From positions 32,001 through 96,000 of the forward strand of contig JAUVXW010000004.1 in assembly GCA_030603385.1 (NCBI GenBank): a stretch of DNA of 64,000 nt, given 5' to 3'. Each line of letters starts with the position of its first letter. Position 1 is the stretch's first letter. This DNA is from Promethearchaeota archaeon (lineage in GTDB: Archaea > Asgardarchaeota > Lokiarchaeia > Sigyniarchaeales > SOKP01). The notes below the pieces were generated by a model that saw only the letters and a program-made list of their open reading frames with translations, did not search any database and was not told the DNA's origin. Positions 40,600 to 61,688 of this stretch are shown here, piece after piece. A program made the translations under genes and the position numbers.

Positions 40600-41573
40600 C
40601 TATATGTTAAAACCATCATCAAAATCATCATAATCTTCAAGGTCAAACCTTTTCCTTTCTTCTTCTTTCTTTTCTCTTTTAAGTTCTTTACGATCCTTAC
40701 GAGTAAGCTCATCTTTTCGTTTAACATAAATTTGTTCATATCTTTCTCTCAAAGCCTCAACATCTTCAACATGACCAATTTTGTCTTCCAATCCATCTTC
40801 AAAGAAAAAGTTCCGTTTGAATTTCTTAGCAGGAACACCCACATATATATAGTTTTTTTCTAAAACTTGTCCAACCGTCGTTACAGAATTAGCTGCTAAA
40901 ATACAATTATGCCCAATTTGAGTGCCTGGCATAACTATTGCGTGTGAACCAATCCTGACCTCATCTTCAATCACTGTCTTCCGTATTATCAACAAATTGC
41001 CTACGATTACAGCAGATTGGATGATTGCACCTTGTCCAACCACTACATCTTTTCCAAAATCTATAAATTCTGTATCAACCCATCCTTCGAACAAACTGTT
41101 CGAGATTTTAGTTTTTACTCCAAACATTTTGAAACAGACATTATCTAAAAATCCAGGGAAAGGGAATCTATGAGCAAGCCAGATTGGCCACCTTTTTATA
41201 GTATTCCGTAAACTCCAGTATCGGTAATCTTTATCTTCTGGAATTCTTAGGAAAACCCCTTCTCGAGGCTTATGAATTGCATTAACAATAAGTAGCAATA
41301 TTTTAGCAAAAATAATTGCTGAAAAAACAAGAGTTATATACATCAGAAATGCTAAAAGTGGTAGAAACGTGTAAAAATGAACGGGTCTTGCATAATTCCA
41401 TAAAAGTTGCCAATACACCCATAATTCCACGAGTATTGGTAATATACTTATCCAAATAAGAAAAATATAAAAAATCAAATAACGTTTCTTTACCAATACC
41501 GTCGGCGTGAATGGCCTTGTGTGAAAATGCGAATCGCATCTTACTCTACACGCATTGTATTTGGAACCGACAT
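40600..41573 (-). CDS. TM + left-handed beta-helix protein, module type C; predicted spliced CDS join(41573-41546,41516-40600), 314 aa
   Basis: AGGAG SD upstream of ATG 41573; spliced N-terminus MSVPNTMRVGPFTPTVLVKKRY is colinear with paralogue MSVPASLNVGPNTTLTLVKKRY; hexapeptide repeats. Confidence 0.85.
41517..41545 (-). other. 29-nt bulge-helix-bulge intron in a protein-coding gene
   Basis: AGTAAGATGCGATTCGCATTTTCACACAA; central helix GUGU/ACAC, bulges AGA and AAG, flanking helices on both sides; removal restores frame and the paralogue-conserved Gly-Pro. Confidence 0.82.
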
Positions 41574-41735
41574 TACTCTTCTCCTTTAACTTACTTATTT
41601 CTGTTTCTTTTTTACTACTTTTTTATTTAATTATTTAATAACTATAGATATTTACTAATATATCTTATTAACTAAAAATAAATCTTATAAATTATAAAAT
41701 CTACTTATAGTTAAAATTAGAAGTCCTCATTTTTG

Positions 41736-42884
41736 TTAGTTATTTAGAGCCATTTTGGTATAAATTGAAATAATATCTCCATCTTCAATTATATGGTTTA
41801 AATTAGCAATTTTTTGACCTGGATGTCTTGCAGAGTTCCCCCATATTAGCGAAAACCGAAAATCTTTTACAAATCTTTTATGAATCTTACGACAAAGAGT
41901 TTTCATGTTATCACCTTTATGAAGAATTATTGGTTCATCCATATCTGCTTCTTTTTTAGGAGGCTTTAAATATACTCGAATTAAATTCAATTCTTGGAAA
42001 ATACGATGGCGAAGTGCATTTATATTTTCTTGATTTTTTGCTGAAATCATGACCCAATGATTGTGCCCAATAGATTCCGTGATTTCTTCTGGTGAGAGTG
42101 GAATCTTCATCAAATCTACTTTATTAATTACAACAAATTCTTTTGTATAAACCCGATTTCCCATTATAAAATCAATTAATTGATCCGGTGTAGTATTTGG
42201 CTCAGAAAAATACACTCCTGCATTAAGAAGACCTAATTCGTTTGATAAAGCTTTAACCTCATTTTTATCCATTAATTGAGGGCCTTTTGAAGTGAAGTGA
42301 ATCCCACCTCGAGTTTATTCTTTAATAGAAATTCGTGATGGTCGACTATTTAAACGGATACCCGCATTATTTAGTTCATTTCTAATTTTTTTCAAATCTA
42401 GAAAATTGATGGTTCCATCTTCTCGAAAACAAATGATTATTAGAATCAATTCAGCTGTCCGTACAGCACCTAAGACTTGTTTCCCTTTACCTTTTCCGGT
42501 GGCGGCTCCTAATATGATACCTGGCAAATCTATCAGCTGTATTTTAGCATCCTCAATATTCATCATACCAGGAATGGCAGTTATTGTAGTAAAATCGTAA
42601 GCTGCTACTTTTGAATGAGTATCACCTTCAGTTAATAGGTTAAGCAATGATGATTTCCCAACGGATGGAAATCCAATAAAAGCTACTTGGGCATCACCCG
42701 ATTTTTTAATCCCAAAGCCCCCGCCACCTCCTTTCTTAGAACTCGCGATTTGAATCAAATTTTCTCGGAGTTTGGCTAATTGGGCTTTAATATAATTTAT
42801 ACTACGCTGAGTGCTCTTATTTGGGATAGTCTCTGCTAACCGTTCCTCAAGCTCCTTAATTCGATCTTCAACTTTTTCACTCAT
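41736..42884 (-). pseudogene. DRG/Rbg-family GTPase with TGS domain, interrupted by in-frame TAA at 42315-42317
   Basis: GFPSVGKS, YDFTT, DLPG, NKVD, SAK, TGS; reads ISIKE*TRGGIHF in one frame. Confidence 0.8.
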
Positions 42885-43125
42885 TCCATGTATATAAAAC
42901 TACTATATCCAAAAAAATTTTCGAAAATTACCTAAGAAAAAGGTTTTTAATAAAGTTGATAATTTAGAAAAACATTTCAGAAGCCATTATGACGATATGG
43001 GTTATTAGTTGATGCCCATTGACCGAAATAATAGTTCGTAGAGGAATTTATTTTAGATAGATGGTAATAAAGAAAATTAAGTACTGAAAATTTTAAAAAT
43101 ATAACAAAAATAAAATAAAAGTTAA

Positions 43126-44343
43126 TTATTCCATTCTTTTCCTTCTGCGTCTTATTAACAGTAGGGCTGCTACACCAATCAATGCCCCTCCACTAATAAC
43201 CGAAATTAAAATAATCAGTTCGATTGGAATTCCACCATCTTGAGCTGAAATTGGACATTTCATTAATGGAAAATTGTCTTGACTTCCTCCAGTAATAATA
43301 TATGGTGTATCCCCAATTCCATCACCATCTTCGTCTGAACCCGTATAATCAGCCCAATAATTACCCTTAATTCCATTATCCCATTCATTAATAGCACCCT
43401 CATCATCAGCATTGAGAGTATTATTAAAACAATTTAGATATATGTTGTTAAATAAAGAAACATGCACGTTTATTCCAGCATCCCCGTTATGATTTACGGT
43501 GTTTCCTGTAATATTGTTATACAAACTACTCCATAAAGATATCCCCCATCTGTTGTTAAAGGAAATAACGCATTCAGATATAATGTTATTATCAGAATCA
43601 GTAATACCAATCCCAATATTATCATTATTATTTACAGTGTTTTCAGAAATAATGTTATTAATACAATCTCCTAAAATTACCCCATTCCAGTTGTTTTCAC
43701 ATATGTTTCCCGAAATGGTATTATTATCACTACTAAGGCCTAATGATATCCCCTCCCCATATTCTGCACCATTTACCGAATTTCCTGAAATTTCGTTATT
43801 ACTACTATGAGTTAAATATATTCCATCCACACTATTATTACTTACTGTATTTCCCGAAATTTCGTTATTGCTACTACTCGATACACGTATACCATGACCG
43901 TTATTATTTGAAACGTTATTGTTTATTAATAATCCATTACTCACTGATGATAATACGATACCCGCATTTGGATATTCAGCAGAATTATAAACTCTACAAT
44001 TTTCTATTTTGAAATACACATTGGAATTTGCAATCCAGATACAACTGCTAGAATTTTTCCCATCGATTATCAAATCTTCTATAACATACGGTTCAGAAAA
44101 GGTACCATTCCCCGTACAATTTCCCGCACTTTTAAAAGCAAGCCACCCAGAATTATCGTCAATATGAATTTTTCCCGAAACTGCTGAGATTTTTGGAATC
44201 TCGTTATTGAAAATAATATCATCGCTATAGCCCGAACTTTTGTTGTAATTGTCCGTAATATAACTAAGATTAGTGGTGATTATTGGTAATAATGCGAAAA
44301 GGATTCCTATGATGATTAAATTTGATTTTACATTTGATTTCAT
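43126..44343 (-). CDS. NosD/pectin-lyase-like right-handed beta-helix surface protein
   Basis: Signal/TM, GIxLxxSSNNxISGN repeats, GNYWADY, DGDGIGDTPY, C-terminal TM + RRRRKR. Confidence 0.85.
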   Translation of the reverse strand: MKSNVKSNLIIIGILFALLPIITTNLSYITDNYNKSSGYSDDIIFNNEIPKISAVSGKIHIDDNSGWLAFKSAGNCTGNGTFSEPYVIEDLIIDGKNSSSCIWIANSNVYFKIENCRVYNSAEYPNAGIVLSSVSNGLLINNNVSNNNGHGIRVSSSSNNEISGNTVSNNSVDGIYLTHSSNNEISGNSVNGAEYGEGISLGLSSDNNTISGNICENNWNGVILGDCINNIISENTVNNNDNIGIGITDSDNNIISECVISFNNRWGISLWSSLYNNITGNTVNHNGDAGINVHVSLFNNIYLNCFNNTLNADDEGAINEWDNGIKGNYWADYTGSDEDGDGIGDTPYIITGGSQDNFPLMKCPISAQDGGIPIELIILISVISGGALIGVAALLLIRRRRKRME

Positions 44344-44612
44344 ATTATTTTCACTATATTAGAAAAATATAATTTGTATGTGATTAGTAATTAAGGTAAT
44401 TTCCTTTATAACATTTCAATCTATTAAGGAATAAATCAATTAACATTTCTGTCAATTAAGTATAACGGGTTATAATAACAAGATTATTTTCTTATTTCAT
44501 AAATGCTCTCAAATGTTAGTTTTTGCCCTCTCTTTTACAATGTGAAACTTTTGGACTAATAAAATATTTAATTTGTTAATAATAAGCTTACTTCGCTGAA
44601 AATACTGATATT

Positions 44613-46505
44613 TTATTCCTCTTCGTCCTTTGTTTTTATTAAATCTTTTTTATCTTCATCTATATTTACTTCATGCGAAACTTCAAATTTTTTTGCTTCA
44701 TCTACATCTCTTTTCATAAGAATTTCTCTTTTTGATTCAGCGTACTTATTTTCTTTCAATTCTATAGCAGGTATACCAAAATATATCCAGCCAGGTTTTA
44801 AAACTTGATCGTAGGTGGTTGAACTAATTGCTCCAATTACAGATTCTTTTTTTATAATAGTTCCTGGTGCAATTGAAGTCTGTCCTCCAACCATAACATA
44901 GTCATCAAATAAAACACCCTTAATTAATAAATATTTTCCAACAACCATGGAAGACATAATGGTTGCCCCCTGTCCGATCAGAACTTTACGACCTAATTTA
45001 ATAAATTCAGAGTCACACCACGTATCAGCTAAATGACTTGAAAAATCCATATCAACCCCAAGTTGCTGAAAAGCTATTACATCTACCCATGGAAATGGTG
45101 AATTCCGTAAAAACCATAAAGAAATCTTCTTTATTTGCGTTCGGAGCTGCCAGAATTCAAAATCTGTGCTTCCTATTTGCGCTTTAAAAACGCCCTCTTT
45201 AGGTTTATGAATTAAATTTACTAATATTAAAAGTAATTTACTGAAAAGAATACACGCTACTATAAAGATGTATAGCAATCCAAATAAGATGACTGGAAAA
45301 AAAAGAAAAAATGGTAAATGAAATCTTATAGAATTTCCATCTATTATATCCCCGGAATACCAATACCATAGGATTGTAATAAGTAAACCTGAAATCCAAA
45401 ATATTGGTATATAGACTAACAAAAACTTTACATTCACTCTGCTTATCGCAGAGCTAGTTGTGAAATCAATCGCCAAATCTTCTTTTGAAAGACTATTAAT
45501 ATCTATTTTTTCTTCTTGTAAGTCATCCAACAATTGTGTGTTATTAGGAACTTTATCTGTTTTCTCTAATCTACGCTCTTTCTCTTTCAATTGATTTAAT
45601 AATTTTTTATCTTTATACTCTTCAATATTCGCATTCTTTTCTAGATCCTTTGGTTTAACATCTAAGTATTCCATAATCTTTCTTCTAAAGATTCTTCTCA
45701 TAGGCATTCCATAATAAAAGTGTTTTCCTCCCTTTAATACACTATGTTTCGGTGTAGAAGCTAGAGGTAATAGATATGAATCATCAAAAATCTCACATCC
45801 TGGGGCAATATTGGCAAATGCAGCAGATGTTACATTATTACCAACTTTAATTTTAAAATAGGAGATATTGCCAAAGATCCCCTCAACAAAATGGCTCGCT
45901 AATGTAGTATTCACACCAATATAACAGTTCTCGCCGCATTCTATAAATTTATCCATACCGACAGACTCCTCAAAGGTTGTACCTTTTCCAATTTTGTTTG
46001 AGCCAACAAAATTAAAAAACCAGTTGCTGAGCCAAGGAAATATACCCTTATTAAAAGTGTTTTTTCCGTATTTTATCATAAAAGCCCTGATATGATAATA
46101 ATTTGCTGTTCTACTTTTTACATTTCGTGGAATAATTCCAGATATCGATGGAGATGTTCTTTCCGTAATTCTCCATATAATTCGTGTGATTAACCCTATC
46201 AGAAATAAGTGAATTAAATAGCACATTATAAGAACTAATGGCATAAATAAAAGAGATATCAACGATTTAAAATCAGTAAAAATTGATATAAAACTAAGAT
46301 TTTCTAAAAAGTATATCCGAAAGGGAAAGAAAAAGTATAACAAAAAAACAAATCCGGGGATTACCCATGAAATGTAATAAATAATAAAGAAAATAATAAT
46401 ATACAAATGAAATTGAACACTTACCTCCTCTTTAATGACTTCATTATTCAATTCATTAGAAGAGGGATGTTCAATTTCACTGTCTTCGTTGTTCATTTCT
46501 ACCAT
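44613..46505 (-). CDS. TM + left-handed beta-helix protein, fused modules A+B
   Basis: Two [2TM + hexapeptide] units; ASHFVEGIFGNISY; SSMVVG. Confidence 0.85.
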   Translation of the reverse strand: MVEMNNEDSEIEHPSSNELNNEVIKEEVSVQFHLYIIIFFIIYYISWVIPGFVFLLYFFFPFRIYFLENLSFISIFTDFKSLISLLFMPLVLIMCYLIHLFLIGLITRIIWRITERTSPSISGIIPRNVKSRTANYYHIRAFMIKYGKNTFNKGIFPWLSNWFFNFVGSNKIGKGTTFEESVGMDKFIECGENCYIGVNTTLASHFVEGIFGNISYFKIKVGNNVTSAAFANIAPGCEIFDDSYLLPLASTPKHSVLKGGKHFYYGMPMRRIFRRKIMEYLDVKPKDLEKNANIEEYKDKKLLNQLKEKERRLEKTDKVPNNTQLLDDLQEEKIDINSLSKEDLAIDFTTSSAISRVNVKFLLVYIPIFWISGLLITILWYWYSGDIIDGNSIRFHLPFFLFFPVILFGLLYIFIVACILFSKLLLILVNLIHKPKEGVFKAQIGSTDFEFWQLRTQIKKISLWFLRNSPFPWVDVIAFQQLGVDMDFSSHLADTWCDSEFIKLGRKVLIGQGATIMSSMVVGKYLLIKGVLFDDYVMVGGQTSIAPGTIIKKESVIGAISSTTYDQVLKPGWIYFGIPAIELKENKYAESKREILMKRDVDEAKKFEVSHEVNIDEDKKDLIKTKDEEE

Positions 46506-46600
46506 TAAAAGCTTTGATTTGCAATTGATCCTTATTATATTTTAATAGATATTTTTTTCCTTTTAAATTTATGAGTCTTAAGCATAGATAAAGATTTGCT

Positions 46601-46996
46601 ATGAATAACAAATGTGAAAACTGTGGAAAATGTTGTTTAGATACAGAAATGATTCTTTCTTTTGAAGATATCGAATTAATAAAGAAAAATTCAATCGATA
46701 ATATAGGAGAAGGTGATTTTGTGTTTAAAAATGAAAATGAGCAATTTCAACTCAAAAACATTGATGGTCATTGCGTTTTTTTAAATTACTCTGCAAAGAA
46801 ATGTAACATTTATGAATTTCGACCTCAAGGATGTAGATTTTATCCATTAATCTATGATATTAACAAAAAAAAATGCTTACTTGATGATGATTGTCCTAAA
46901 AAGGATCAATTTTATAATACAAAACAAAGTCTAAAAATTACATGTTCGAATTTGAAAAGGTTTTTAGAACAACAATTTACTTTGAAAATTGATTAA
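46601..46996 (+). CDS. YkgJ/UPF0153 cysteine-cluster protein
   Basis: CENCGKCC, CVFL, CNIYEFRPQGCRFYP. Confidence 0.88.
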   Translation: MNNKCENCGKCCLDTEMILSFEDIELIKKNSIDNIGEGDFVFKNENEQFQLKNIDGHCVFLNYSAKKCNIYEFRPQGCRFYPLIYDINKKKCLLDDDCPKKDQFYNTKQSLKITCSNLKRFLEQQFTLKID

Positions 46997-47008
46997 AGTT
47001 GAGATATC

Positions 47009-48847
47009 CTAGGTCAGATCTTTTTTGTCTTCTTCAATGTTAATTTTATGCTCAACTTCAAACTTCCTCTCTTCATCTACATCTTTTTTCATAACAATAT
47101 CACGTCTTTCTTCAGCATATCGGTTTTTCTTTAATTTAATGACGGGAATTCCAAAATATATCCATCCTGGTTCGAGGATCTGATTATATGTAGTTGAACT
47201 TATAGCTCCAACGACTGAATCCTTACCTACTATTGTTCCAGGTGCAATGGTTGATTGTCCTCCTATCACTACAAAATCATCAAGAATAACATCTTTAATT
47301 AATAAGTATTTTCCAACGACCATTGATGACATTACGGTAGCACCTTGACCTATTAGAACGGATCTTCCCATTTTTATAAATTCACCATCGCACCACGAGT
47401 CAAATAAGGAACTTGAAAGAGTCATTTTTATACCCATTTTTTTAAAAACTAATATGTCCATCCAAGGAAGAGGCCAATTTCGTATAAGCCATAAAACAAT
47501 TTTTTTTAACTCTGTCCGTAAACACCAAAATTCGAAATCACCATTACCTTTTTCAGCTTTAAAGACCCCCTCTTTTGGTATATGAATTAAATTTATTAAA
47601 ATTAAGAATAATTTAGTAAAAAAGAAACTCGCTATAATAAAAATAAACCACATAAGGATGACCATCGTTGGTAAAAAAAATGCCATAACCAACCACCTAT
47701 TATATCCAACATAATAAGTAAATGTATAAAACATTATGGTTACTAGCATACCAGAAAGCCAAAATATAGGAACATAGACAACTAAAAATTTTAAATTTAC
47801 CCTTGAAATTGCACTACTTGTCGTAAAATCAATTCTTAAATCTTCTTCATTTATATTATTAATATCAATATTATCTTCATTTGAATCTGTGAATTCTTGT
47901 TCATATTTAGGAAAAACTTCAGATTGTTTGATATCTTTCATGGCTTTTAATTTTTTTAACAGATTTTTATCTTTATAGCCGTTAATATTTTCATTTTTTT
48001 CTAAATCCTCTGGTTTAACACCTAAGTATCCCATAATCTTTTTTCTAAAGATTCTTCTCATCGGAATTCCAAAATAAAAGTTTTTTCCTCCCTTTAATAC
48101 ACTATGTTTCGGTGTAGAAGCTAGAGGTAATAGATATGAATCTTCAAACACCTCACTTCCCGGAGCAATGTTAGCCATTGCAGCAGCGGTTACGTTATTA
48201 CCAACTTTAATTTCAAAATAGGAGATATTGCCAAAAATCCCCTCAATTAGATGGCTTGTTAAGCTTGAATTTACTCCAATATAACAATTCTCGCCTATGT
48301 TAATAAATTTATCATTAACACAAGATTCTTCTAATGTTGAACCTTTAGAAATTTTACTAGCTCCAATAAAATTAAAAAACCAGTTGCTGAGCCAAGGAAA
48401 AAGCCCTTTCATAAAAGCATTCTTTCCTTGCTTAATCATAAAACCTCTTATTTGATAGTAATTCAATGTTTTACTTGGGAAATTTCTTGGTATAATCCCT
48501 TCTTTACTTGGTGACCTTTTTTGGCTCAAACTCCAAAAACCACGTGTAATTAGACCTATGAAAAATAACCGGAGAAGATAACAACAAATGAGAACAAAAG
48601 GCATAGAGATTAATGCTAATAAAGGCTTAAACTCGGTAAAAAGTGCCAAAAAATTAGTAGTTTCTAAAAAATGTGGTAAGAAAAAAAGAATCATATAAGT
48701 CATAAATAAAATTGCCGGAATTAATAAAGAAGCTAGAAAAATTGTAAAAAGAATAAAGAGATACCAGAAATATGGATTTTTAATTTCTTCTCTAACAGTT
48801 TTTTCCTCTAAGCTATCCTCAGTCGATTGTTGCTCTATCGTTGTCAA
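47009..48847 (-). CDS. TM + left-handed beta-helix protein, fused modules A+B
   Basis: Paralogue of 44613-46505; TSHLIEGIFGNISY. Confidence 0.85.
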   Translation of the reverse strand: MTTIEQQSTEDSLEEKTVREEIKNPYFWYLFILFTIFLASLLIPAILFMTYMILFFLPHFLETTNFLALFTEFKPLLALISMPFVLICCYLLRLFFIGLITRGFWSLSQKRSPSKEGIIPRNFPSKTLNYYQIRGFMIKQGKNAFMKGLFPWLSNWFFNFIGASKISKGSTLEESCVNDKFINIGENCYIGVNSSLTSHLIEGIFGNISYFEIKVGNNVTAAAMANIAPGSEVFEDSYLLPLASTPKHSVLKGGKNFYFGIPMRRIFRKKIMGYLGVKPEDLEKNENINGYKDKNLLKKLKAMKDIKQSEVFPKYEQEFTDSNEDNIDINNINEEDLRIDFTTSSAISRVNLKFLVVYVPIFWLSGMLVTIMFYTFTYYVGYNRWLVMAFFLPTMVILMWFIFIIASFFFTKLFLILINLIHIPKEGVFKAEKGNGDFEFWCLRTELKKIVLWLIRNWPLPWMDILVFKKMGIKMTLSSSLFDSWCDGEFIKMGRSVLIGQGATVMSSMVVGKYLLIKDVILDDFVVIGGQSTIAPGTIVGKDSVVGAISSTTYNQILEPGWIYFGIPVIKLKKNRYAEERRDIVMKKDVDEERKFEVEHKINIEEDKKDLT

Positions 48848-49010
48848 TTTATTAAATTTTTAATTTTGATTTATATTTAGTAATTAAGATAATTTTTCTA
48901 AAAAACTCAATGTTTTAAAAATATGACCTAATTGTAAAATTGATTACTTGTTAAAAGAGTCTTTATAAAAGCAATTAAATATGAAAATAAATTAAAAAAT
49001 TAGAGGCTTT

Positions 49011-50843
49011 TTAAGCAAGATCTTTTTTGTCCTCATCTACATTGATTTCATATTCAATTTCATACTTTTTCTCTTCGTCTACATCTTTTTTCATAAGGAT
49101 TTCTCTTTGCGATTCAGCGTATTTGTTTTCTTTTAGCTTGATAACAGGAATTCCAAAATAAATCCAGCCTGGTTCGATAATTTGATTATATGTGGTTGTA
49201 CTAATAGCACCAACAACGGAATCTTTACCTATTATTGTTCCAGGTGCAATGGTTGATTGTCCTCCTATCACAGCAAAATCATCGCATATAACCTCTTTAA
49301 TTATTAAATATTTTCCAACGACCATTGAGCTCATAACCACAGCCCCTTGACCTACAAGGTTTTTACGCCCAAATTTAATAAATTCACCATCACACCATGA
49401 ATCATATAAAGTACTGGAAAGAGACATTCTTATTCCCCCAAATTTGAAGGCTAATATGTCCATCCAGGGAAGAGGCCAATTACGTATAAGCCATAGAACA
49501 ATTTTCCTTAATTCGGTCCGTAAACACCAAAATTCCCAATTAGTGTCTCCAACTTCGGATTTAAAGATACCTTCTTTAGGTTTATGTATTAAATTGATTA
49601 AAGTTAAAAATAATTTACTGAAGAAGAAACAAGCCAGTATAAAAACAAACCACATAAGGATGACCATCGTTGGTAAAAAAAATGCTATAACCAACCAGTT
49701 TCGAACATAAAATGTGAACGTATAAAACATTATGGTTACTAGCATACCAGAAAGCCAAAATATAGGAACATAGACAACTAAAAATTTTAAATTTACCCTT
49801 GAAATTGCGCTACTTGTTGTGAAATCAAGTGCTAATTCTTCTTCTGATAATTTATTAATATCTATTTTTTCTTCTTGTAGGTCGTCCAACATTTCTGTGC
49901 TATTAGGAATCTCATCTGTTTTCTCTAATCTACGTTCTTTCTCTTTCAATTGTTTTAATAATTTTTTATCTTTATACCCTTCAATATTCTCATTTTTTTC
50001 TAAATCGCCAGATGTTATCTCTAAATATTCCATAGTTTTTTTTCTAAATATCTTTCTTAATGGAAGCCCCCAATAATAATTATTTCCTTTTAGTGCACTA
50101 TGTTTTGGAGTTGAAGCTATTGGAAGTAAAAAAGAGTTGTCGTAGACTTCTGATCCAGGGCCAACGATATTCATTACTGCTCCAGTAACATTATCTCCCA
50201 CTTTTACCTTAAAGTAAGAAACATTCCCAAAAATTCCCTCAGTAGCGTGGCTGGATATGGCAGAATTAACCCCTATGTAGCAGTTCTTGCCTACTTCAAT
50301 AAATTTATCATTACTTACGGACTCCTCAAAGGTACAACCTTTTCCGAATTTACTTGCTCCGATAAAGGTGAAGAACCAATTACTAAGCCATGGAAAAATA
50401 CCTTTCATAAAGGAATTCTTTCCGTATTTAATCAAAAAGCTCCTAATATGATAATACTTGAGAATTCTACTTGGAAAATTTCTCGGAATTATCCCATCTT
50501 TACTAGGGGATTTTTTTTCACTCGATTTCCAAAAAGCACGAGTAATTAATCCCACGAAAAATAAGCGGATTAAATAACAACCAATAAGAACCAAGGGCAT
50601 AGAGATTAATGCTATAATGGGTTTAAATTCAGTAAAAAGCGTGATAAAACTTGTAGTTTCTAAGAAATGTGGTAAGAAAAAAAATCTCATATAAGTCATA
50701 AATAATATAGCAGGAATGACCAATGAAGCTAAAAAAATCGTAAATAGCATGAAGAGATACCAAAAATATTGATATTTAATTTCTTCTCTAATCATTCCGT
50801 TCTCAGAATCGTTTTCAATTGACTGTAATTTAGTATCTGCCAT
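49011..50843 (-). CDS. TM + left-handed beta-helix protein, fused modules A+B
   Basis: Third paralogue; SSHATEGIFGNVSY. Confidence 0.85.
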   Translation of the reverse strand: MADTKLQSIENDSENGMIREEIKYQYFWYLFMLFTIFLASLVIPAILFMTYMRFFFLPHFLETTSFITLFTEFKPIIALISMPLVLIGCYLIRLFFVGLITRAFWKSSEKKSPSKDGIIPRNFPSRILKYYHIRSFLIKYGKNSFMKGIFPWLSNWFFTFIGASKFGKGCTFEESVSNDKFIEVGKNCYIGVNSAISSHATEGIFGNVSYFKVKVGDNVTGAVMNIVGPGSEVYDNSFLLPIASTPKHSALKGNNYYWGLPLRKIFRKKTMEYLEITSGDLEKNENIEGYKDKKLLKQLKEKERRLEKTDEIPNSTEMLDDLQEEKIDINKLSEEELALDFTTSSAISRVNLKFLVVYVPIFWLSGMLVTIMFYTFTFYVRNWLVIAFFLPTMVILMWFVFILACFFFSKLFLTLINLIHKPKEGIFKSEVGDTNWEFWCLRTELRKIVLWLIRNWPLPWMDILAFKFGGIRMSLSSTLYDSWCDGEFIKFGRKNLVGQGAVVMSSMVVGKYLIIKEVICDDFAVIGGQSTIAPGTIIGKDSVVGAISTTTYNQIIEPGWIYFGIPVIKLKENKYAESQREILMKKDVDEEKKYEIEYEINVDEDKKDLA

Positions 50844-52343: not shown

Positions 52344-52358
52344 TATAAATTTTTATCC

Positions 52359-52724: not shown

Positions 52725-52827
52725 TTTTATAACCTTCTTTTTTAGTGACTAATAATTATAGGGAAAGTATTTAAATGAAAAAAAATCTAAAATTGAAAAA
52801 AGGTTAGCCGTAGCCTTTCATGGCACA

Positions 52828-53411: not shown

Positions 53412-53538
53412 GCTTGGATTACTCGGAAATAAAGCATTAAAAAATTAGAGCTTTTTCTAGTTATGCTTATATCCTTCGCAAAAATTTCTATATTAATAAT
53501 GGAGTGTTATTTAGATCTTCTACAGTTGTTTCATTTAA
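53412..53538. repeat. 127-bp direct repeat, copy 2
   Basis: Identical to 51119-51245; includes the stop codon of 53535-54323. Confidence 0.92.
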
Positions 53539-54323
53539 TCCAGATTAAAATTGAATTCACAAATTTTATCATGAATCTTATTCTTTAATTCCCTTGATAT
53601 ATCATTGATAAAATCCTCTGGAATACTCTCTAAATATTCACCTAATACTTTTTCAATTGTAGGAGAAATTTTATTTATAACTATCTCAAGAATTTCATGC
53701 TTCTTTAAATATCTGTTTTGAAATGCCTGTATATAGGTTTTATTTAACTTCTTTAACCATACTTTTCCTTTATTCTCTAAAATTGTAAGAATCCTTCTGG
53801 AATTTGAATCATTAAAATGCTGAAACTCATATTCGTACCTAATTAAAATTTCTTTAAAGTACTGAATAATTTGTTCCTTTTCTTTTAAGTTTAAATCAAC
53901 TTTAGAGTTTAGAAAAATAATTACCATAAACTTATCAAACAGAAAATACAACTGGACTTTAATGTTGGATCCATGAATTTCAAGATTTGATAAGTTTTGG
54001 ATATTAGTTTGCCCAGCAAATGTTTTGAATGAGCTAAAATACATTGAAATTAGATCGATTTCTAATAAACTCTTATTATCTTCAGACAAATACGATTTTA
54101 TTGAGCCGTAATTTTCTTCCGGCTTATTTTCATATTCAAGAACCATGATTGTATTTCCAAATTGATCGGCAATTATCATACCAATAATCGGTGGTATTTT
54201 GTTAAAATTATATGAGAAATTTGCAATTTGGTCTAGTTTTCCATTTATTGATGTTCCGTGGTTTTGAATTCTATTGTAGGTTTTCATAAAATTGTCGTTT
54301 GAAATATTTTTTTGTAAAAACAA
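53535..54323 (-). CDS. Possible longin/roadblock-like domain protein
   Basis: IIGMIIADQFGNTI strand-turn, helix, three-strand run (IHGSNIKVQLYF..FMVIIFLN), helix. Confidence 0.5.
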   Translation of the reverse strand: MFLQKNISNDNFMKTYNRIQNHGTSINGKLDQIANFSYNFNKIPPIIGMIIADQFGNTIMVLEYENKPEENYGSIKSYLSEDNKSLLEIDLISMYFSSFKTFAGQTNIQNLSNLEIHGSNIKVQLYFLFDKFMVIIFLNSKVDLNLKEKEQIIQYFKEILIRYEYEFQHFNDSNSRRILTILENKGKVWLKKLNKTYIQAFQNRYLKKHEILEIVINKISPTIEKVLGEYLESIPEDFINDISRELKNKIHDKICEFNFNLD

Positions 54324-54772
54324 ATAATTAAATTAGCATTTCAAATATTTGCTCAATCATAATAAATCTCAAGGGGGGTGTCGGTTTTAACAAAAAGTGA
54401 ACTTTTCCTTTATAAGTTATTACGACAAAAACCATTTAACAGATAGTAATTAGATTATGGTGATCTTTTTTACTTCCATAAATAAAATTATTTATTTCTC
54501 TTCCTTAAAAGAAGTTATTGAATTCTTAAATACATTTTAACTCTTTTTATTTTGTTTAAATCCAAATAAATATCGAGAAGAGAGGATATGAAAAAATTCG
54601 GTCATAGAGAAAAGAAGATAAAAAGTCCAGAAAGCTCGTATACTGTCTTTACGGCATTAAATTATTTAATGTGCTTTTCTAGGAACTTCTCAATGGATTG
54701 AATCCCATGCAAAATCTTTATATATCATACCATTATCAATAAGCTTGGTAAAAAGATTAGTGAGATCTAAAA

Positions 54773-55201
54773 TTGTTGAGAAGATCAAGAATATCCTTCA
54801 TAGTTGTCTTAGTAAGTATGATTTTATTTCTAGTTCCATTATTCCTTCAAACAGGAATAGAAGAAGTCCCTATTAACCCGGAGGTCCCAGAAATAACAGT
54901 ACTCACCGATAGGTCTTTTATCTCTATTTATTTTTATATCCTTTCCCCAATGGGGCTTTTTATGCATATTGCTTTTCTCTATTTTATTTGGAACGAAAAA
55001 TCTCCGAAATATAGATATAAAAATCCAAGGAATATGGTTATCATGGGGGGAATTGCAGTAGTATTACTTCTCTTTGCCCCAAAGTATCTTTTTCCTGAAT
55101 TTCTTACAGAAGAGCAAGATATTATAATAATAGTATTAATGGCATTGAGTGCGATTTTACTATTTATTAGCGGAATAATCTACAAGAAAACAGAAACTTA
55201 A
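54773..55201 (+). CDS. Four-TM membrane protein
   Basis: Four hydrophobic segments in 142 aa. Confidence 0.65.
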   Translation: MLRRSRISFIVVLVSMILFLVPLFLQTGIEEVPINPEVPEITVLTDRSFISIYFYILSPMGLFMHIAFLYFIWNEKSPKYRYKNPRNMVIMGGIAVVLLLFAPKYLFPEFLTEEQDIIIIVLMALSAILLFISGIIYKKTET

Positions 55202-55342
55202 TGATTACTTAATATTTTTCTCTAAAAATCTCTCAACTTTTCTTCAGGGAAAATAAATTTTTTATAGAATTAACTCTAATCCATTAGATACTGAATAAAA
55301 AAAAAAAGAATTTGTTTATTAAGTATTAAACTCATCAATTAA

Positions 55343-55678
55343 CTACTCAGGCGCTTTCATTCCAACCATTTCTAAAGCTTCCGATACTTTGAAACGAACT
55401 TCTATGTGATATTTATACCCTGGTATGTTATGATAGTTTACCATGTTCTTTTGTTCTAGGAATAAAAATTCCTCTAATTTACCTTCTTTTACATCATAAA
55501 CACTAAAACTTTCAATACCATCATCAGTTGCTTTTACAGCATTTGGAACTATTTCTTTTGCAAATTCTCTATGTTTGGATCGGTAATCTTTGGCAGTTTC
55601 TACATAAATTTTAGCTACCTCGTTTGTCTGATCAAGTGGAAATTTACTAGTTGAAACAACATAAGGCATATTTTTCAC
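55343..55678 (-). CDS. Hypothetical protein (small alpha/beta)
   Basis: 111-aa ORF; GAGGTG SD-like motif overlaps the annotated GTG, so ATG 55669 may be the true start. Confidence 0.65.
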   Translation of the reverse strand: MKNMPYVVSTSKFPLDQTNEVAKIYVETAKDYRSKHREFAKEIVPNAVKATDDGIESFSVYDVKEGKLEEFLFLEQKNMVNYHNIPGYKYHIEVRFKVSEALEMVGMKAPE

Positions 55679-56167
55679 CTCTTTTTACAATTACCATTTA
55701 TTTATTAATTTAGAAAATTGAATTTTCAATTTACAGAAAAGTCAAATAATTATTTAAGATTAACTATTTGACAAAATTAGTGAAGAATTAAATCTCATAT
55801 AAATAATTTGATATTGAACCTAAATCCAACCTAAGTCCAATTTGGGAAGATCCAAGACCTTCTTTATAAAGCCGTAAGCTAAATAAATAAGAAAAAAAAA
55901 GTTTTTTGGATGGGTCTACATTTCTAATTTCCTTTCTAATACAATTCCTTATTTGGGTTATATCATTCATTATTTTTCTACTAATAATTATATTTTCTTC
56001 AATAGAGATAAAAGATTATGAAATCAAAAAGTCTTTTAGCTTTTTCTGGATCTTTAAGCTCCTCGAACTTTTCTGAATTAATCAAAAACATAAATTTCAG
56101 TCTTAATAGGTTTAAATATAAGAGCATCTAAATTATAAATAATCATTTTAATTCATAAAATAGAGAT

Positions 56168-56992
56168 GTGAAATTTATGGTAGAAAATAAAGGTTCGTTA
56201 TTTGGTATTATCGCAATTATTATTGGAGCTTCTGGATTAGGGCTTGGAGCCTTTTCGATAGTGAATTTTCAAGTGGTCGAAGGACCACCTGGAGGTGATG
56301 GGCAGGATGGTACAGATGGTCAAGATGCTCCAATAGGGCTTGTCGTAGGAATTTTAGATCCAGACCAAGATGATACGGTATGGGGGGAAATAGTAATAAG
56401 AGCGTTAGTATATGGAAGTAATAACTATTCAGTGTCCGTGAAAGCAAATCAAACCGAAATTGGAACCCAATTACCCACCTTCTGGGATACATCTTTAGAA
56501 GTAGAAGGGTGGTATAATCTAACGGTTATAATTACAGACTATGAAACTAAAGAAACCGCTTTTGATGAAGTATGGCTCAAGGTGGAGAATCCGGTGAAAA
56601 CTTATTATCTTTCAACCGCAAATGAAATAATATGTACCACATCTTCAGGCGGTTGGCGAAGCGTTTTTGATTTAGACGGAGGATTGGGAGGTATTTTTAT
56701 AGAATTAGAAGAAGGAGAAGCCCTTTATCTAAGTTTTACAGGGTATTTTCGTGAACCGGCGTTTCCTGGCTATTATGATATTAGCTTCTATGATTGGGCT
56801 ATTGGTCCGATTGGGATACCACTTACGGTATATCTCGATGATACTTATCAAAGCGTTACTTTTGTAAGAGAAGTATTCTCTCCCTCTTATCAGATTCCTG
56901 GTATTCATCGGATAGATGTTGCTATATATGATCCACAACTTGGAATCCGGACTAAGGACCGATCTTTGATGGTACAAATCATAGTTCTTTAA
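56168..56992 (+). CDS. Membrane-anchored protein with short collagen-like stretch and Ig-like domain
   Basis: N-terminal TM, GPPGGDGQDGTDGQD, WDTSLEVEGWYNLTV. Confidence 0.7.
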   Translation: MKFMVENKGSLFGIIAIIIGASGLGLGAFSIVNFQVVEGPPGGDGQDGTDGQDAPIGLVVGILDPDQDDTVWGEIVIRALVYGSNNYSVSVKANQTEIGTQLPTFWDTSLEVEGWYNLTVIITDYETKETAFDEVWLKVENPVKTYYLSTANEIICTTSSGGWRSVFDLDGGLGGIFIELEEGEALYLSFTGYFREPAFPGYYDISFYDWAIGPIGIPLTVYLDDTYQSVTFVREVFSPSYQIPGIHRIDVAIYDPQLGIRTKDRSLMVQIIVL

Positions 56993-57392
56993 AGATTCTT
57001 ATTTTTCTTTTAATTATCTTTTTTTTTATTTCATCTAAGTCTCTGATTGGGCATTTTAACGTTATATACTTGGCATGATCAAATTCAATTTTTTACCAAT
57101 AAAATAAATCACTAAATCATTACTCTGTATCCATTTATAAAGACGTTTTTAAACTGAATAGGATATAAGAAGACGTTAAAAGCGAAGGTTCATAACGAAT
57201 CGGACAAAACTATCCAAAGTTTAGTGCAATAACAAACAAATGGTAGATATTAATTCTCCTAAATACAATTCACTGTTATAATTTTCTCCGTCAAATACAG
57301 CAGCTTTCATATCTTGAACATTTTACATAAAATTTAGAAAGAAAACATGCTAGTATTGAAAAGATATAATAACTGTCATTTACTATATTATA

Positions 57393-57668
57393 ATGACAAT
57401 TGAAAAAATGAAGATGCAAATGACTGAAAAAATAATTCAAAAAGTCTCATCAAATGGAAGGATTGTCATACCAAAAAAATGGAGAGACAAGTTAGCTATT
57501 GATGATAAAAATGAGGTTGAGATGGAACTGAAGGATGATAAAACTATTTTAATCAAAAAAAAAATACATCCGCTTGAGATAGAGGATAACTTATTTAAAG
57601 GAGTAGCTCCGTTTACAGAAGAAGAGTTAGATGAAGCAAAAAAATCGTTATTCCCTAGTGAGAAATAA
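57393..57668 (+). CDS. AbrB/MazE-family antitoxin
   Basis: KVSSNGRIVIPKKWRDKLAI. Confidence 0.85.
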   Translation: MTIEKMKMQMTEKIIQKVSSNGRIVIPKKWRDKLAIDDKNEVEMELKDDKTILIKKKIHPLEIEDNLFKGVAPFTEEELDEAKKSLFPSEK

Positions 57669-57696
57669 ACAAAAATTTAGTGGTTTTTGATATAAA

Positions 57697-58098
57697 ATGA
57701 CAGAAAAAGTAGTAATTGATGCTCAGGTCCTATTTTATTTCCATTATGAATATCAAAAGATTCCATTAATTCTCCAACAACTGAAAAAAAAAGTGATAAA
57801 TGGAGAAATAACAGTAATCCTCCCTACAATTGCAATCGCAGAATTATTTTGGAAAATGAGAAGAGCTGGAAAAACAGATGCATTTGAGGAGGCTCTCAAT
57901 CGATGGGAAAACTCAGAAAATATCATTATCGATGATTTTAATTTGGAAATCATTAAATTGATGTTAAAAAATACTGAAAGTCACGAATTGCATGATGAAA
58001 TCATTGCTATGACTTGTAAAAAGCACAATACGGACATTATTTACTCTAAAGACAAAAAATTTAAAGAAATATTCAATTTACTACTAAGATCTTGGTAG
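57697..58098 (+). CDS. vapC: PIN-domain (VapC) toxin
   Basis: VVIDAQ, IAE, LHDEII, YSKD acidic tetrad. Confidence 0.85.
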   Translation: MTEKVVIDAQVLFYFHYEYQKIPLILQQLKKKVINGEITVILPTIAIAELFWKMRRAGKTDAFEEALNRWENSENIIIDDFNLEIIKLMLKNTESHELHDEIIAMTCKKHNTDIIYSKDKKFKEIFNLLLRSW

Positions 58099-58181
58099 TA
58101 GAGAATTGTGTTTTTTCTCGCCTATAATTTAGAAAAAAGATAATTCATTTTAGTATTTCATCAAATTTAAAATGGAAAGAA

Positions 58182-58967
58182 TTAAACTTTGTAAAAATCC
58201 TTCCTTCTATCCTCAAAAATATCATTGAAATTGTTGAGTTTTTTGTCTCTTACTTTTTCTATATCAATTTCTGCAAACCCTGAATAAATCTTGTCGACTG
58301 GTGCTGACGAGAGGATTTGTCCATCATAAGAAGTAATCTGACTAGCCCCTGTAAATACGAAATTATCTTCCCCTCTTATTTCTTCTCCAATTCGATTCGC
58401 TGTAACGGCGTAAATTCGATTTTCTAAACATCGCGTTATCATTGCCTTTTGACAATAGGGAAGTACTAAATTTGCTGGATGAGCAATAATATCCGCACCT
58501 AAGAGTGCAAGTGTCCTGGCTGTTTCTGGAAAGAACCAATCAAAACATATCATTATGCCAATATTAACACCATTTACTTCAAACACTTTTAATGGTTTAT
58601 TGCCCGGAGAAAACCATAATTTCTCTTTATATTATAGATGAATTTTCCTATAAGTGTCAATAACTCCCTTATTTGAAACAATCAATGCCGAATTATATAT
58701 TTTATTGCCTTCTTTTTCTACAAACCCACCAATAATCACAGCTCCAGTATTTTTAGCAATTTTAAGTAAAAATTGAGATGTTTTTCCATTTATTTTTTCA
58801 GCTAAAGAAACTGCTTCTTCTTTTGATATGAAAGTATAACCCGTTGCAAATAACTCAGGTAATACTATTAAATCACCCTTCAAATTAGCAATTAATTTCT
58901 CAATTTCATTAAAATTTTGCTCCTTCTCGCCAAAAATGGGATTTGTTTGAATATAACCAACTTTCAT
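58182..58967 (-). pseudogene. Carbon-nitrogen hydrolase (nitrilase family) interrupted by in-frame TAA at 58632-58634
   Basis: LPELF, YRKIHL*YKEKLWFSPG, ICFDWFFPE (E-K-C triad) all in one frame. Confidence 0.82.
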
Positions 58968-59021
58968 TTTTAATCATTTTTGAATGTATATATTTTCATA
59001 AAATAAGATAATAACTTTATA

Positions 59022-59870
59022 TTAGTCAATTTTAGTTTCTTTGTCCACACGCATTGTATATAACTCTTCAAATTTTTCGTGTGATTCTATTTCCTTTTCT
59101 ATTTGCTTTTCAATTATATCTTCTAATCCTTCTTCAAAAAATACGTTTTTTTTGAACTTTTTTGCGGGAGCTCCTAAGTATATAAAATTTTCTTCTAACT
59201 CTTGACCAACAGTAGTCAAAGAATGCCCTCCTAAAATTGAATTCTTTTTAATATGTGTTCCAGGCATAACAACACTGTGAGCACCAATTACTACATTATC
59301 TTCTATAATTGTTTTTCTTATAATAAATAAATTTCCGACTATTAGAGCTGATTGAACAATAGCACTTTGCCCAACGACTATATTTTTTCCAAATTCAATA
59401 AATTCCGTATCAACCCACCCTTCAAAAAGTGAATTTGAATATTTAATTTTCATACCAAACATTTTTAAACATATATTATTCATAAATGGGAAGGGGAATT
59501 TATGAGATATCCAAATTGGCCATTTCTTTATCGTACTTCTTAAACTCCAGTATCTATAATCTTTATCAGAAGAGTGCCTTAAAAAAATACCCTCTCGCGG
59601 TTTATGAATACGATTGACGATTATGAGAAATATCTTAGCAAAAATTAAGGATACGATAATAGAAGTTAGGTACATTACAAAAACTAAAAGGGGTAAGAAA
59701 AAAAGGAAGTGAATAAATTTTGGCTCATAAAGTTTCCAAAACAACCAAAATTCAAATTGAATTGTAAAAATACTAATCCAGATCAAAAAAATATAGAAAA
59801 TTAAGTATCTCTTTTTTACTAAAGTAAGAGTAGTATTTGGTCCAACATTTAAACTTGCGGGTACTGACAT
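59022..59870 (-). CDS. TM + left-handed beta-helix protein, module type C (intron-less paralogue)
   Basis: MSVPASLNVGPNTTLTLVKKRY...DKDYRYWSLR...SNSLFEGWVDTEFI. Confidence 0.88.
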   Translation of the reverse strand: MSVPASLNVGPNTTLTLVKKRYLIFYIFLIWISIFTIQFEFWLFWKLYEPKFIHFLFFLPLLVFVMYLTSIIVSLIFAKIFLIIVNRIHKPREGIFLRHSSDKDYRYWSLRSTIKKWPIWISHKFPFPFMNNICLKMFGMKIKYSNSLFEGWVDTEFIEFGKNIVVGQSAIVQSALIVGNLFIIRKTIIEDNVVIGAHSVVMPGTHIKKNSILGGHSLTTVGQELEENFIYLGAPAKKFKKNVFFEEGLEDIIEKQIEKEIESHEKFEELYTMRVDKETKID

Positions 59871-59875
59871 AATGT

Positions 59876-60766
59876 TCAATCCTCCGAGTTAATGTGAAGA
59901 AATTTTTTCTTATCTTCATCAATATTAACTTCTTGTTTAACTTCATATTTTATTTCTTCATCCACATGCTTTCTATAAATGAGATCTCTTCTTTGCTCTG
60001 CATATTTATTAGGTTTTAATTTCCTTGCAAATTGAGGGCCTATATAAATCCAGGCTCGTTCTAAAATTTGGCTAGGAATTATAGTAGAAAAAGCTCCAAG
60101 CACAGATTCCTTCTCCATAATAGTACCTGGAGAAACGTGTGATACACCACCAACTAGTATGTGATCTCCTAGGATTACCTTTTTTATTATCAGATAGTTT
60201 CCTACCACCATTGAACTCATTACTACAGCTCCCTGCCCAACGGTAATGTTTCGGCCAAATTCTATAAATTCTCCATCCACCCAAGCATCATGTGCGTGAC
60301 TTGAGAAATCAATTCTTATACCTAACCACTTAAATCCCCACGTAACGACCCACGGGAGCGGACCATTACTCATAAACCAAAATACGAGTTTTTTAAGTTC
60401 TACTCTCAATCTCCAAAATTCATAATCGTTATCACCCTCGATTGCTCTGAAAACACCCTCTTTGGGAGTATGGATCATATTTATTATAAGAAGGAATGCT
60501 TTTGTAAAAATCGCAATACCAAATATAAAGATAAAATATAAAACAAATAACCATATAGGAAGTAAAAACATATTTATATACCATGTAATATTTCGCGATA
60601 TATCGAAAAATATAGCAGCAGCCATGTATCCAGAAATCCATAAGATAGGGATGTATAAAGCTAGAAACTTATAACCAATTCTACTTATTGCACTGGTTGT
60701 TACAAAATCAATCGTATAATCTATTTTGTTAGTCTCGTTTTTTAATCCTTTTCCAACTTTACTCAT
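59876..60766 (-). CDS. TM + left-handed beta-helix protein, module type B
   Basis: DFVTTSAISR...EFWRLRVELKK...SSMVVG; matches the C-terminal half of the fused genes. Confidence 0.88.
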   Translation of the reverse strand: MSKVGKGLKNETNKIDYTIDFVTTSAISRIGYKFLALYIPILWISGYMAAAIFFDISRNITWYINMFLLPIWLFVLYFIFIFGIAIFTKAFLLIINMIHTPKEGVFRAIEGDNDYEFWRLRVELKKLVFWFMSNGPLPWVVTWGFKWLGIRIDFSSHAHDAWVDGEFIEFGRNITVGQGAVVMSSMVVGNYLIIKKVILGDHILVGGVSHVSPGTIMEKESVLGAFSTIIPSQILERAWIYIGPQFARKLKPNKYAEQRRDLIYRKHVDEEIKYEVKQEVNIDEDKKKFLHINSED

Positions 60767-61688
60767 TTAATTTACTCTCAATATTTTTCTTTTTTCTTTT
60801 TTTTGATAAATTCATCTTTTCGTTAAGATCTTCCGCTCTTTTCAAATCTTCTTCTGTGATTTGTAAGAAATCCATTACCCTTCTCTTAAAGATTTTTCTT
60901 AGAGGAGTTCCAAAATAGTAATTATTACCTTTCAAAATATTATATTTTGTTGCTCCTGTCACGGGAAACCACCAAGAATTATTACCAATTTCTACACCAG
61001 GACCAAAACAATTAAAACCTCCAGAAGTAACATTATTACCAATTTTTACTTTTGCAAAAGAAATATTTCCGAAAATCCCTTCTACAGCATGCGAGACCAT
61101 ACCAGGATTTGTTCCAATGTAAGAATTTTCTCCAATTTCTATAAATCGATCACCAGCAAGTTGTTCTTCTATAACCGTTCCTTTTCCAATTTTATTAGTC
61201 CGTGTAAAATTAAACATCCATTTTAATAGCCAGGGAAATGGTCCTCTTGAAAAAGCATTTTTCGGATATTTAATCGTAAAACTACGAAAGTGGTAAAAAT
61301 TTAAAGTTTTACTGGGTATATTTCTTGGAATAATCCCTGATTTTGAAGGGGATCGCTTTTCTGAGATGCCCCAAAACCATCGGGTAATTAATGCTACAAA
61401 AAATAGATGTATTAAGTAGCATACGATAATTACAAGAGGTAGACATAAAGAAGCAATTAGAGAAGGTAAATTGGTAAATATTGAGATAAAATTCCTTACT
61501 TCTAAGAAAAAGGGTAAATAAAATAGCATTATAAACATCATGAAAATTATGGCTGGTACTAGGAAAGAGCCAAAATAAATGACAAAAAATGCAGGTAAAT
61601 ACCAATGCAATTGTAAATTAATTTCTTCTTTAATAAGATTATTAGCAGGATCTACGTTTTTTGTTTCAGTTTCTTTTGTTTCCGCCAC
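60759..61688 (-). CDS. TM + left-handed beta-helix protein, module type A
   Basis: SPSKSGIIPRN...VSHAVEGIFGNISF; matches the N-terminal half of the fused genes. Confidence 0.88.
   Translation of the reverse strand: MAETKETETKNVDPANNLIKEEINLQLHWYLPAFFVIYFGSFLVPAIIFMMFIMLFYLPFFLEVRNFISIFTNLPSLIASLCLPLVIIVCYLIHLFFVALITRWFWGISEKRSPSKSGIIPRNIPSKTLNFYHFRSFTIKYPKNAFSRGPFPWLLKWMFNFTRTNKIGKGTVIEEQLAGDRFIEIGENSYIGTNPGMVSHAVEGIFGNISFAKVKIGNNVTSGGFNCFGPGVEIGNNSWWFPVTGATKYNILKGNNYYFGTPLRKIFKRRVMDFLQITEEDLKRAEDLNEKMNLSKKRKKKNIESKLNE

Follow-up and report, generated by a model that had tools for sequence, protein, structure and literature searches.

Split relatives of the Pls/PosA membrane domain in a Lokiarchaeal genome are candidate three-part membrane acyltransferases

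We analyzed a stretch of 64,000 nucleotides from the genome of a Promethearchaeota archaeon (Lokiarchaeia, Sigyniarchaeales, SOKP01; assembly GCA_030603385.1, contig JAUVXW010000004.1, positions 32,001 to 96,000). We will refer to this stretch as the window, and we number positions from its first nucleotide. The 64-kb window contains ten copies of one protein module, in seven open reading frames (ORFs) on the minus strand. Each module comprises two transmembrane (TM) helices, a helical linker, and a left-handed beta-helix (LbH), and the modules fall into three types, which we will call A, B, and C. Locus 2 is a packed operon of three single-module genes, A2-B2-C2, and locus 1 holds three A+B fusions and the single-module gene C1 (Table 1). 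A preliminary description of this DNA had reported a seven-gene family of three types, each with its own motifs. The ORFs, the motifs, and BLASTP comparisons all bear this out: type A has S-H-x-x-E-G-I-F-G-N, type B has SAISR, EFWxLR, and SSMVVG, and type C has DKDYRYWSLR and SLFEGWVD. Seven genes is the correct extent for the window, while across the whole genome, the family comprises 12 genes with 16 modules.

Table 1. Module genes and selected neighbors, in window coordinates
Feature	Positions	Strand	Remarks
A2	60759-61688	-	type-A module; His200 and Glu203 (counted from the GTG start)
B2	59876-60766	-	type-B module; no His in the catalytic column
C2	59022-59879	-	type-C module; no His
AB3	49011-50843	-	fusion of A and B modules; 610 amino acids, 4 TM helices, 2 LbH
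AB2	47009-48847	-	fusion of A and B modules; 612 amino acids
AB1	44613-46505	-	fusion of A and B modules; 630 amino acids; His205 and Glu208 in the A module
C1	40600-41496	-	type-C module; uninterrupted ORF from TTG 41496
5' piece of C1	41517-41573	-	ATG 41573, preceded by a Shine-Dalgarno sequence; 9 codons, then the 29-nt insert 41517-41545
CxxCxxCC (PF03692) protein	46601-46996	+	divergent from AB1
Carbon-nitrogen hydrolase	58182-58967	-	directly downstream of C2; one in-frame TAA at 58632-58634
AMP-binding gene	38736-40565		adjoins C1

In pairwise BLASTP comparisons of the window's modules, A modules are 48-52% identical to each other, B modules are 49-51% identical to each other, and C1 and C2 are 63% identical. 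The B and C types are 35-39% identical, and A is 22-27% identical to B or C (E = 1e-9 to 1e-12). Judging from these alignments, the kinship of the three types is far above chance. Every module has two strongly hydrophobic N-terminal helices. Because the loops between TM1 and TM2 are poor in lysine and arginine, while the 35 residues past TM2 are rich in them (4-9 K/R), the positive-inside rule predicts that the N-terminus and the LbH are on the cytoplasmic side. Of all this, Pfam recognizes the hexapeptide repeats alone (PF00132, in all seven proteins and above the 27-bit cutoff in four of them), and the database labels of these proteins are "hypothetical" or "DapH/DapD/GlmU-related."

Pls and PosA are nonribosomal peptide synthetases of the single-module kind, which make epsilon-poly-L-lysine and delta-poly-L-ornithine, respectively. 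They have membrane domains that are built from the same kind of unit. In the model of PosA, each unit has two helices and a strand before the LbH, and Pls itself is a pseudo-heterotrimer (PMC10522769). In Pls, the aminoacyl group is attached to the thiolation (T) domain as a pantetheine thioester, from which it is transferred to an amine (PMC8506220). The Asgard proteins resemble Pls and PosA in having the same unit (two TM helices, a strand, two or three helices, and an LbH of about five turns) three times. The LbH is predicted to be cytoplasmic, as in Pls and PosA; one unit per trio has the sequence H-x-x-E; and the similarity is detectable unit for unit. In contrast to Pls, where three tandem units form part of one chain, the Asgard units are split into genes with one or two units each, and the Asgard proteins lack adenylation (A) and T domains. 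Also, the unit with the histidine is first in the Asgard operon (A-B-C) but third in Pls.

Among NCBIfam profiles, TIGR02353, which identifies Pls, fits the B and C modules best, and the alignments begin upstream of the LbH (from profile positions ~49-77). Weak matches to TIGR02353 are unspecific on their own, as all 14 of our control genomes have matches with E ≤ 0.01. The window's proteins score 12.9-43.3 bits and the best protein in the host genome scores 55.8 bits, versus a curated cutoff of 423.1 bits for membership of the whole protein.

Stronger evidence comes from direct comparisons. When we searched 5.8 billion proteins with C2, the matches among longer proteins included three of ~1,300 amino acids, with E values of 2e-5 to 5e-4 (P0144, P0145, and P0147). 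These are true Pls/PosA proteins: they score 425-626 bits on TIGR02353, and they have adenylation and PP-binding domains. In the BLASTP alignment, residues 31-246 of C2 are collinear with residues 604-820 of one of the Pls proteins, through both TM helices, the linker, and the LbH. A hidden Markov model (HMM) of the ten modules matches each Pls protein three times in tandem (for instance, at model positions 37-255, 29-249, and 23-246 of 288), while it matches a generic LbH protein at positions 144-248 only. Finally, we used hhalign to compare ~190 modules of the family with the C1, C2, and C3 units of Pls, which gave probabilities of 99.3-99.4% over 202-219 columns. (With the default local setting, the alignment spanned the LbH alone; we used a looser setting to obtain the longer alignment.) The LbH and the preceding helix were aligned with high confidence, TM2 and the linker with moderate confidence, and TM1 with low confidence.

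Stand-alone proteins with three units are also found in bacteria, specifically in Planctomycetales, Omnitrophota, and Elusimicrobia (for example, MBK8576353.1 from a metagenome-assembled genome of Elusimicrobia). Like the Asgard trios, they have three units of two TM helices plus LbH and no A or T domains, but they are single chains of ~650-690 amino acids, and they are themselves uncharacterized. In three cases, these bacterial relatives are tied to a short-chain dehydrogenase/reductase (SDR): one is fused to it, one is adjacent to it, and one is in the same operon (L018 7971-14604; L020 7063-12411; P0252). On TIGR02353, the bacterial triple-module proteins reach 157-184 bits, and the alignments include the TM regions. 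These proteins also match the Asgard profile with E values of 1e-27 to 1e-35. An HMM of just the part of the Asgard modules before the LbH matches them as well (E = 5.6e-8). By these scores, the bacterial proteins link the Asgard modules to TIGR02353.

The similarity found with HMMs, hhalign, and BLASTP, along with the shared layout, supports the earlier suggestion that these proteins resemble the condensation region of Pls. From the sequences, we consider homology of the whole unit to Pls/PosA to be well supported, though not proven for TM1. We extend the homology to the membrane part because of the collinearity, the moderate posterior support, and the bridging sequences from bacteria.

Given the relationship of the modules to the polymerizing domain of Pls/PosA, and the H-x-x-E in one unit of each trio, the ABC core might be a true synthase of poly-amino acids or other polyamides. 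The monomers would be activated in trans, for example by a stand-alone AMP-binding enzyme or as aminoacyl-tRNA, and the polymer would be exported through a bundle of six helices, as in Pls. There is an AMP-binding gene beside C1, and the host genome has 23 AMP-binding genes. There is also an AMP-binding gene after the triple-module gene of Elusimicrobia and a FemAB-like gene near that of Omnitrophota, and some relatives retain a carbon-nitrogen hydrolase gene downstream of C. However, we did not find any PP-binding domain (PF00550) in the host genome, which is 94% complete (3.89 Mb in 58 contigs); the control search had matches in 11 of 14 genomes. Without a carrier domain in the genome, thiotemplate synthesis of poly-amino acids seems unlikely. 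The AMP-binding neighbor of C1 is not conserved either (the best match at the related loci has 23% identity), so we rejected the idea of a conserved adenylating partner. Furthermore, none of the Asgard representatives that we examined combines a module with an A or T domain in one protein, and in the tree, the Pls clade does not include the Asgard modules. We therefore consider a polyamide synthase to be an unlikely explanation. A more elaborate proposal is that these are free-standing polymerases of the Pls type, which make and export a novel polyamide or acylated polymer of the Lokiarchaeal cell envelope by carrier-free activation in trans, with the AB paralogs leading to different products; we consider this improbable.

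The preliminary description had correctly stated that the seven proteins lack fused adenylation or carrier domains. Our scan of them against Pfam and NCBIfam found no AMP-binding or PP-binding domain, and the lack of PP-binding domains extends to the genome. It had also suggested that these proteins are ligases or make a poly-amino acid. Nothing shows this, and without a carrier, the known chemistry of Pls cannot run. As for co-occurrence with adenylation or carrier proteins, which it had proposed as a check, AMP-binding genes are present, but carriers were not found and the one AMP-binding gene next to a module is not kept in relatives.

Because we found no PP-binding domain in the genome, acyl-CoA is the simplest candidate for the donor. 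Nearly all LbH acyltransferases use acyl-CoA. Still, we would put the odds of an acyl-CoA donor at slightly less than even.

To describe how the three types go together, we used a sample of ten loci from seven related genomes in four genera. At all ten loci, transcription runs from A through B to C, with three separate genes or with an AB fusion immediately followed by C. Trios of a second sort, with a two-module fusion followed by a single module, are found on another contig of the host genome and in relatives. Across the family, we observed the fusions A-B, C-A, and C-A-B, including natural three-module fusions of 789 and 797 amino acids (P0130 and P0149), which are found in relatives only. 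All of these are cyclic permutations of A-B-C, as expected for a ring with a fixed handedness. Among 25 multi-module representatives of the A/B/C kind, we did not find any clear counter-example to this cyclic order. In a maximum-likelihood tree, the middle unit of the three-module fusions, which has the histidine, groups with A (support 0.97).

AlphaFold2's model of the 797-residue fusion P0149 has a mean pLDDT (predicted local distance difference test) of 83.5 and a pTM (predicted template modeling score) of 0.84. In the model, each unit has two long helices, a strand, two or three more helices, and the LbH, which is the same layout as in the model of PosA. A pTM of 0.84 for a chain of three units implies that the units are confidently placed relative to each other, and hence that the predicted arrangement is a fixed one. 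In the model for AB1 (pLDDT 71, pTM 0.64), the same layout occurs twice, and residues 268-358 form a disordered linker. The LbH domains in the AlphaFold2 models have regular short strands.

LbH acyltransferases are usually homotrimeric, so A, B, and C could each form an independent homotrimeric membrane acetyltransferase of the hexapeptide type, and the gene order would merely be a trace of tandem duplication. There are dispersed single-module relatives in other Asgard families and lone modules on other contigs of the host genome, and roughly half of the single-module representatives retain the histidine, which would fit with homotrimers. On the other hand, B and C lack the histidine in all of the sequences that we examined, so a trimer of B or of C would not have a catalytic base. 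The A-B-C order is maintained across genera with overlapping stop and start codons, the fusions A-B, C-A, and C-A-B are recurrent, and the triple fusion is confidently modeled as a single body, which is what a heteromer predicts. Pls also provides a precedent for a pseudo-heterotrimer. Independent homotrimers therefore seem quite improbable. Instead, as the preliminary description proposed, the fixed order, the fusions, and the confident model of the triple fusion fit a heterotrimer of A, B, and C, and we consider this assembly to be probable.

We then considered the active site. In 22 sequences of type A, the histidine of the H-x-x-E motif is invariant, a glutamate or aspartate is found three residues later in 18 of them, and G-x-F-G-N is nearly invariant. 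At the corresponding positions, B has S-S-M-V-V and C has Q-S-A-x-I-V, with no histidine in either. In all three Pls proteins, the C3 unit has T-H-L-F-E-D or C-H-L-F-E-D, with its histidine in the same alignment column as that of type A. So the trios have one H-x-x-E unit, as the preliminary description had it, and the comparison with the C3 unit of Pls holds. More generally, proteins with three units usually have one unit with the histidine: in Pls this is the third unit, and the Asgard fusions and three of four bacterial proteins have it in the middle. When A2 is compared by phmmer with maltose O-acetyltransferases, its histidine aligns with their "ATH" segment, although the matches are weak (E = 0.0065 to 0.5); we take the histidine of that segment to be the catalytic base of the family.

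When we ran Foldseek with the model of P0149, the best solved folds were CoA-dependent O-acetyltransferases (TM-score ~0.6 on the target). Both a sequence search of PDB and Foldseek with the triple-fusion model returned soluble LbH proteins only, and no membrane structure resembling Pls. The best structural matches, which are the maltose and galactoside O-acetyltransferases (3igj, 1ocx, 1kru), share the LbH fold with a preceding helical element. Unlike the putative ABC complex, these enzymes are soluble and form homotrimers in which all three active sites are identical; they do not have a TM hairpin or any division of labor among three paralogous subunits. The top NCBIfam match of the A modules is NF058585 (heptaprenylglyceryl phosphate O-acetyltransferase, an enzyme of ether lipids), but this is a weak similarity of the kind that is general to the family.

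Gamma-carbonic-anhydrase-like subunits of complex I reuse the LbH trimer fold in a non-enzymatic role. A structural, scaffold, or transport complex of this sort would account for the loss of the histidine from B and C. In addition, sequence searches of PDB match the B halves best to gamma-carbonic-anhydrase-like proteins, and the six-helix bundle could be a pore. Nevertheless, this is very unlikely: the invariant histidine and nearly invariant G-x-F-G-N in 22/22 A-type sequences speak for retained catalysis, the closest folds are CoA-dependent O-acetyltransferases, and no histidine is invariant across the ten modules, so the three zinc ligands of gamma-carbonic anhydrases are not kept.

Overall, we think that the modules are heterotrimeric membrane acyltransferases with a single active site that probably depend on acyl-CoA; we give this reading a probability of roughly 60%. 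One A, one B, and one C (or one AB fusion and one C) would assemble into a complex with pseudo-threefold symmetry. Its six TM helices would span the membrane, and its three LbH domains would be packed against each other on the cytoplasmic side. Because A alone retains a catalytic-type histidine, the complex would have one active site at a subunit interface, and B and C would serve as non-catalytic walls. A single active site per complex is likely, if not quite as likely as the heterotrimer. The donor would most likely be a thioester of CoA, the pantetheine arm of which is the same as the one that Pls recognizes on its T domain. As the acceptor, we envisage a membrane-associated or exported molecule, such as a lipid, a lipid-linked glycan, or an envelope polymer. 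The additional AB paralogs probably provide alternative specificities and would share C subunits.

In the bacteria, the genes for three-unit proteins are near genes for SDRs, glycosyltransferases, GMC (glucose-methanol-choline) oxidoreductases, nucleotidyltransferases, and AMP-binding proteins. This context hints at an enzyme that modifies lipids or sugars, and not at the synthesis of peptides.

Several observations weigh against this interpretation. First, all of the stand-alone members of the family are biochemically uncharacterized. Second, the packing of the trimer is deduced from the pTM of a model rather than from measured contacts. Third, in the tree, the first unit of the fusions groups with C and the last unit groups with B at low support (0.36 and 0.22); W-S-L-R...I-K-K-W-P-I-W is common to C and the first fusion unit, which is consistent with the tree's grouping. 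Fourth, the window has four A modules, four B modules, and two C modules, so some of the AB proteins must share a C or work in another way. Fifth, the profile comparison with Pls and TIGR02353, which the preliminary description had proposed as a check, was convincing for the full module (99.3% with hhalign) but was not significant for the part before the LbH alone. HMMs for that part, built from 10 or 163 modules, had no match to the Pls proteins at E ≤ 10, and pairwise phmmer searches with the corresponding pieces of the bacterial triple-module proteins did not find anything in Pls either. Sixth, the neighboring genes vary among loci, and Pfam annotation of them, here and in relatives, did not reveal a substrate or a clear pathway. 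Finally, the 5' end of C1 is interrupted (see below).

Do A, B, and C correspond one-to-one with the C3, C1, and C2 units of Pls? We rejected this idea: in the tree, the Pls units, the units of bacterial triple-module proteins, and the Asgard A/B/C modules each cluster by lineage (with support of 0.96, 1.0, and 0.90, respectively). Because of this clustering, we describe A as an analog of the C3 unit of Pls, and not as a demonstrated ortholog. The tree suggests that single-module, presumably homotrimeric ancestors gave rise to sets of three unlike units on more than one occasion. Alternatively, the units might have co-evolved within each lineage.

Close homologs of the modules belong to Promethearchaeota/Lokiarchaeota. 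To examine their distribution, we searched a sample of 151 genomes from the phylum with the module profile (E ≤ 1e-20). All 25 genomes of the same family matched, often with 11-15 scored matches, and both of the genomes from the sister family matched as well. In four other families, some genomes have weak matches (~1e-21 to 1e-26), and we did not find any matches in the remaining 21 families. The sister family has modules in pairs and singles, and the more distant families have dispersed single genes. At a stricter threshold (E ≤ 1e-70), the C type is restricted to its own family (24/25 genomes). In the ESM Atlas, we found the same family and one bacterial Hexapep cluster, and nothing else.

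Ten of the host genome's 16 modules are in the window. Elsewhere, contig C17 (11643-13959) has a two-module (C-A) fusion and a B-like single module, which together make up the second trio; contig C45 (23520-27454) has two single modules; and contig C32 (2606-3397) has one. The dispersed singles may be a third, scattered set, because relatives of two of them are fused in a metagenomic protein (P0176).

The module genes in the window also have some peculiarities. In the operon, A2 and B2 overlap by 8 nt. The true start of C2 is most likely ATG 59870 (giving 282 amino acids), which is 5 nt past the stop of B2, with GGAGG within the last codons of B2. In locus 1, DNA identity among the three AB genes (44613-50843) is patchy, with windows of 86-93% against a background of 68-76%, and there are identical runs of 60 and 89 nt. 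These patches and runs suggest gene conversion between the tandem copies.

For C1, the preliminary description gave the span 40600-41573. This covers the main ORF correctly, but the uninterrupted ORF begins at TTG 41496, and 41573 is the ATG of a short 5' piece. An insert of 29 nt follows codon 9 of C1 and is absent both from the ortholog in another genome of the same genus and from C2. The 5' piece is in frame with the main ORF only when the insert is deleted, which also restores the N-terminus that is conserved in those two proteins. An intron, an insertion that disables the gene, and an assembly error are all conceivable. The region forms a small hairpin, and its folding z-score of -1.3 is neither for nor against a splicing motif. 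In the same-genus genome, the ortholog of C1 is directly downstream of the ortholog of AB1. In the window, AB1 and C1 are instead separated by a 3-kb block with genes for a DRG-type GTPase and a NosD-like right-handed beta-helix protein (41736-44343), so the gene comparison indicates a local insertion or rearrangement. The GTPase gene (41736-42884) is the genome's sole close copy and has one in-frame TAA (42315-42317).

Turning to the other neighbors, a PF03692 gene is next to AB or ABC genes in the window and in five related loci, so from gene proximity, the CxxCxxCC protein is a possible partner of the module proteins. The in-frame TAA of the carbon-nitrogen hydrolase is at a tyrosine codon of its ortholog, and the gene is intact and adjoins C in two relatives. 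This stop codon and that of the GTPase could be due to sequencing errors, pseudogenes, or read-through. There are FG-GAP repeat proteins upstream of the ABC operon (61928-63999), and another is near the triple-module gene of Elusimicrobia (L020 4994-6856). A leucine-rich-repeat protein is encoded upstream of locus 1 (36288-37334). The proximity of these repeat proteins to module genes is probably a coincidence.

Our literature searches did not turn up a cryo-EM structure of Pls, or any paper that treats these Asgard proteins or other stand-alone proteins related to the membrane domain of Pls. The latter result agrees with the preliminary description, which knew of no account of such a system in archaea, although stand-alone relatives occur in bacteria too. 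Among combinations of two TM helices with an LbH, only the membrane domain of Pls/PosA has been studied, and its mechanism is unsolved. Our finding places this domain in a wider and unstudied family of stand-alone membrane LbH enzymes, of which up to 16 or more units are present per genome in one Lokiarchaeal family, in ordered A-B-C sets. In the split form, nature has taken the pseudo-trimer apart into separable subunits, which makes the idea of a single active site in Pls-like enzymes testable. It also points to a conserved and expanded membrane acyl-transfer activity in the archaea that are closest to eukaryotes.

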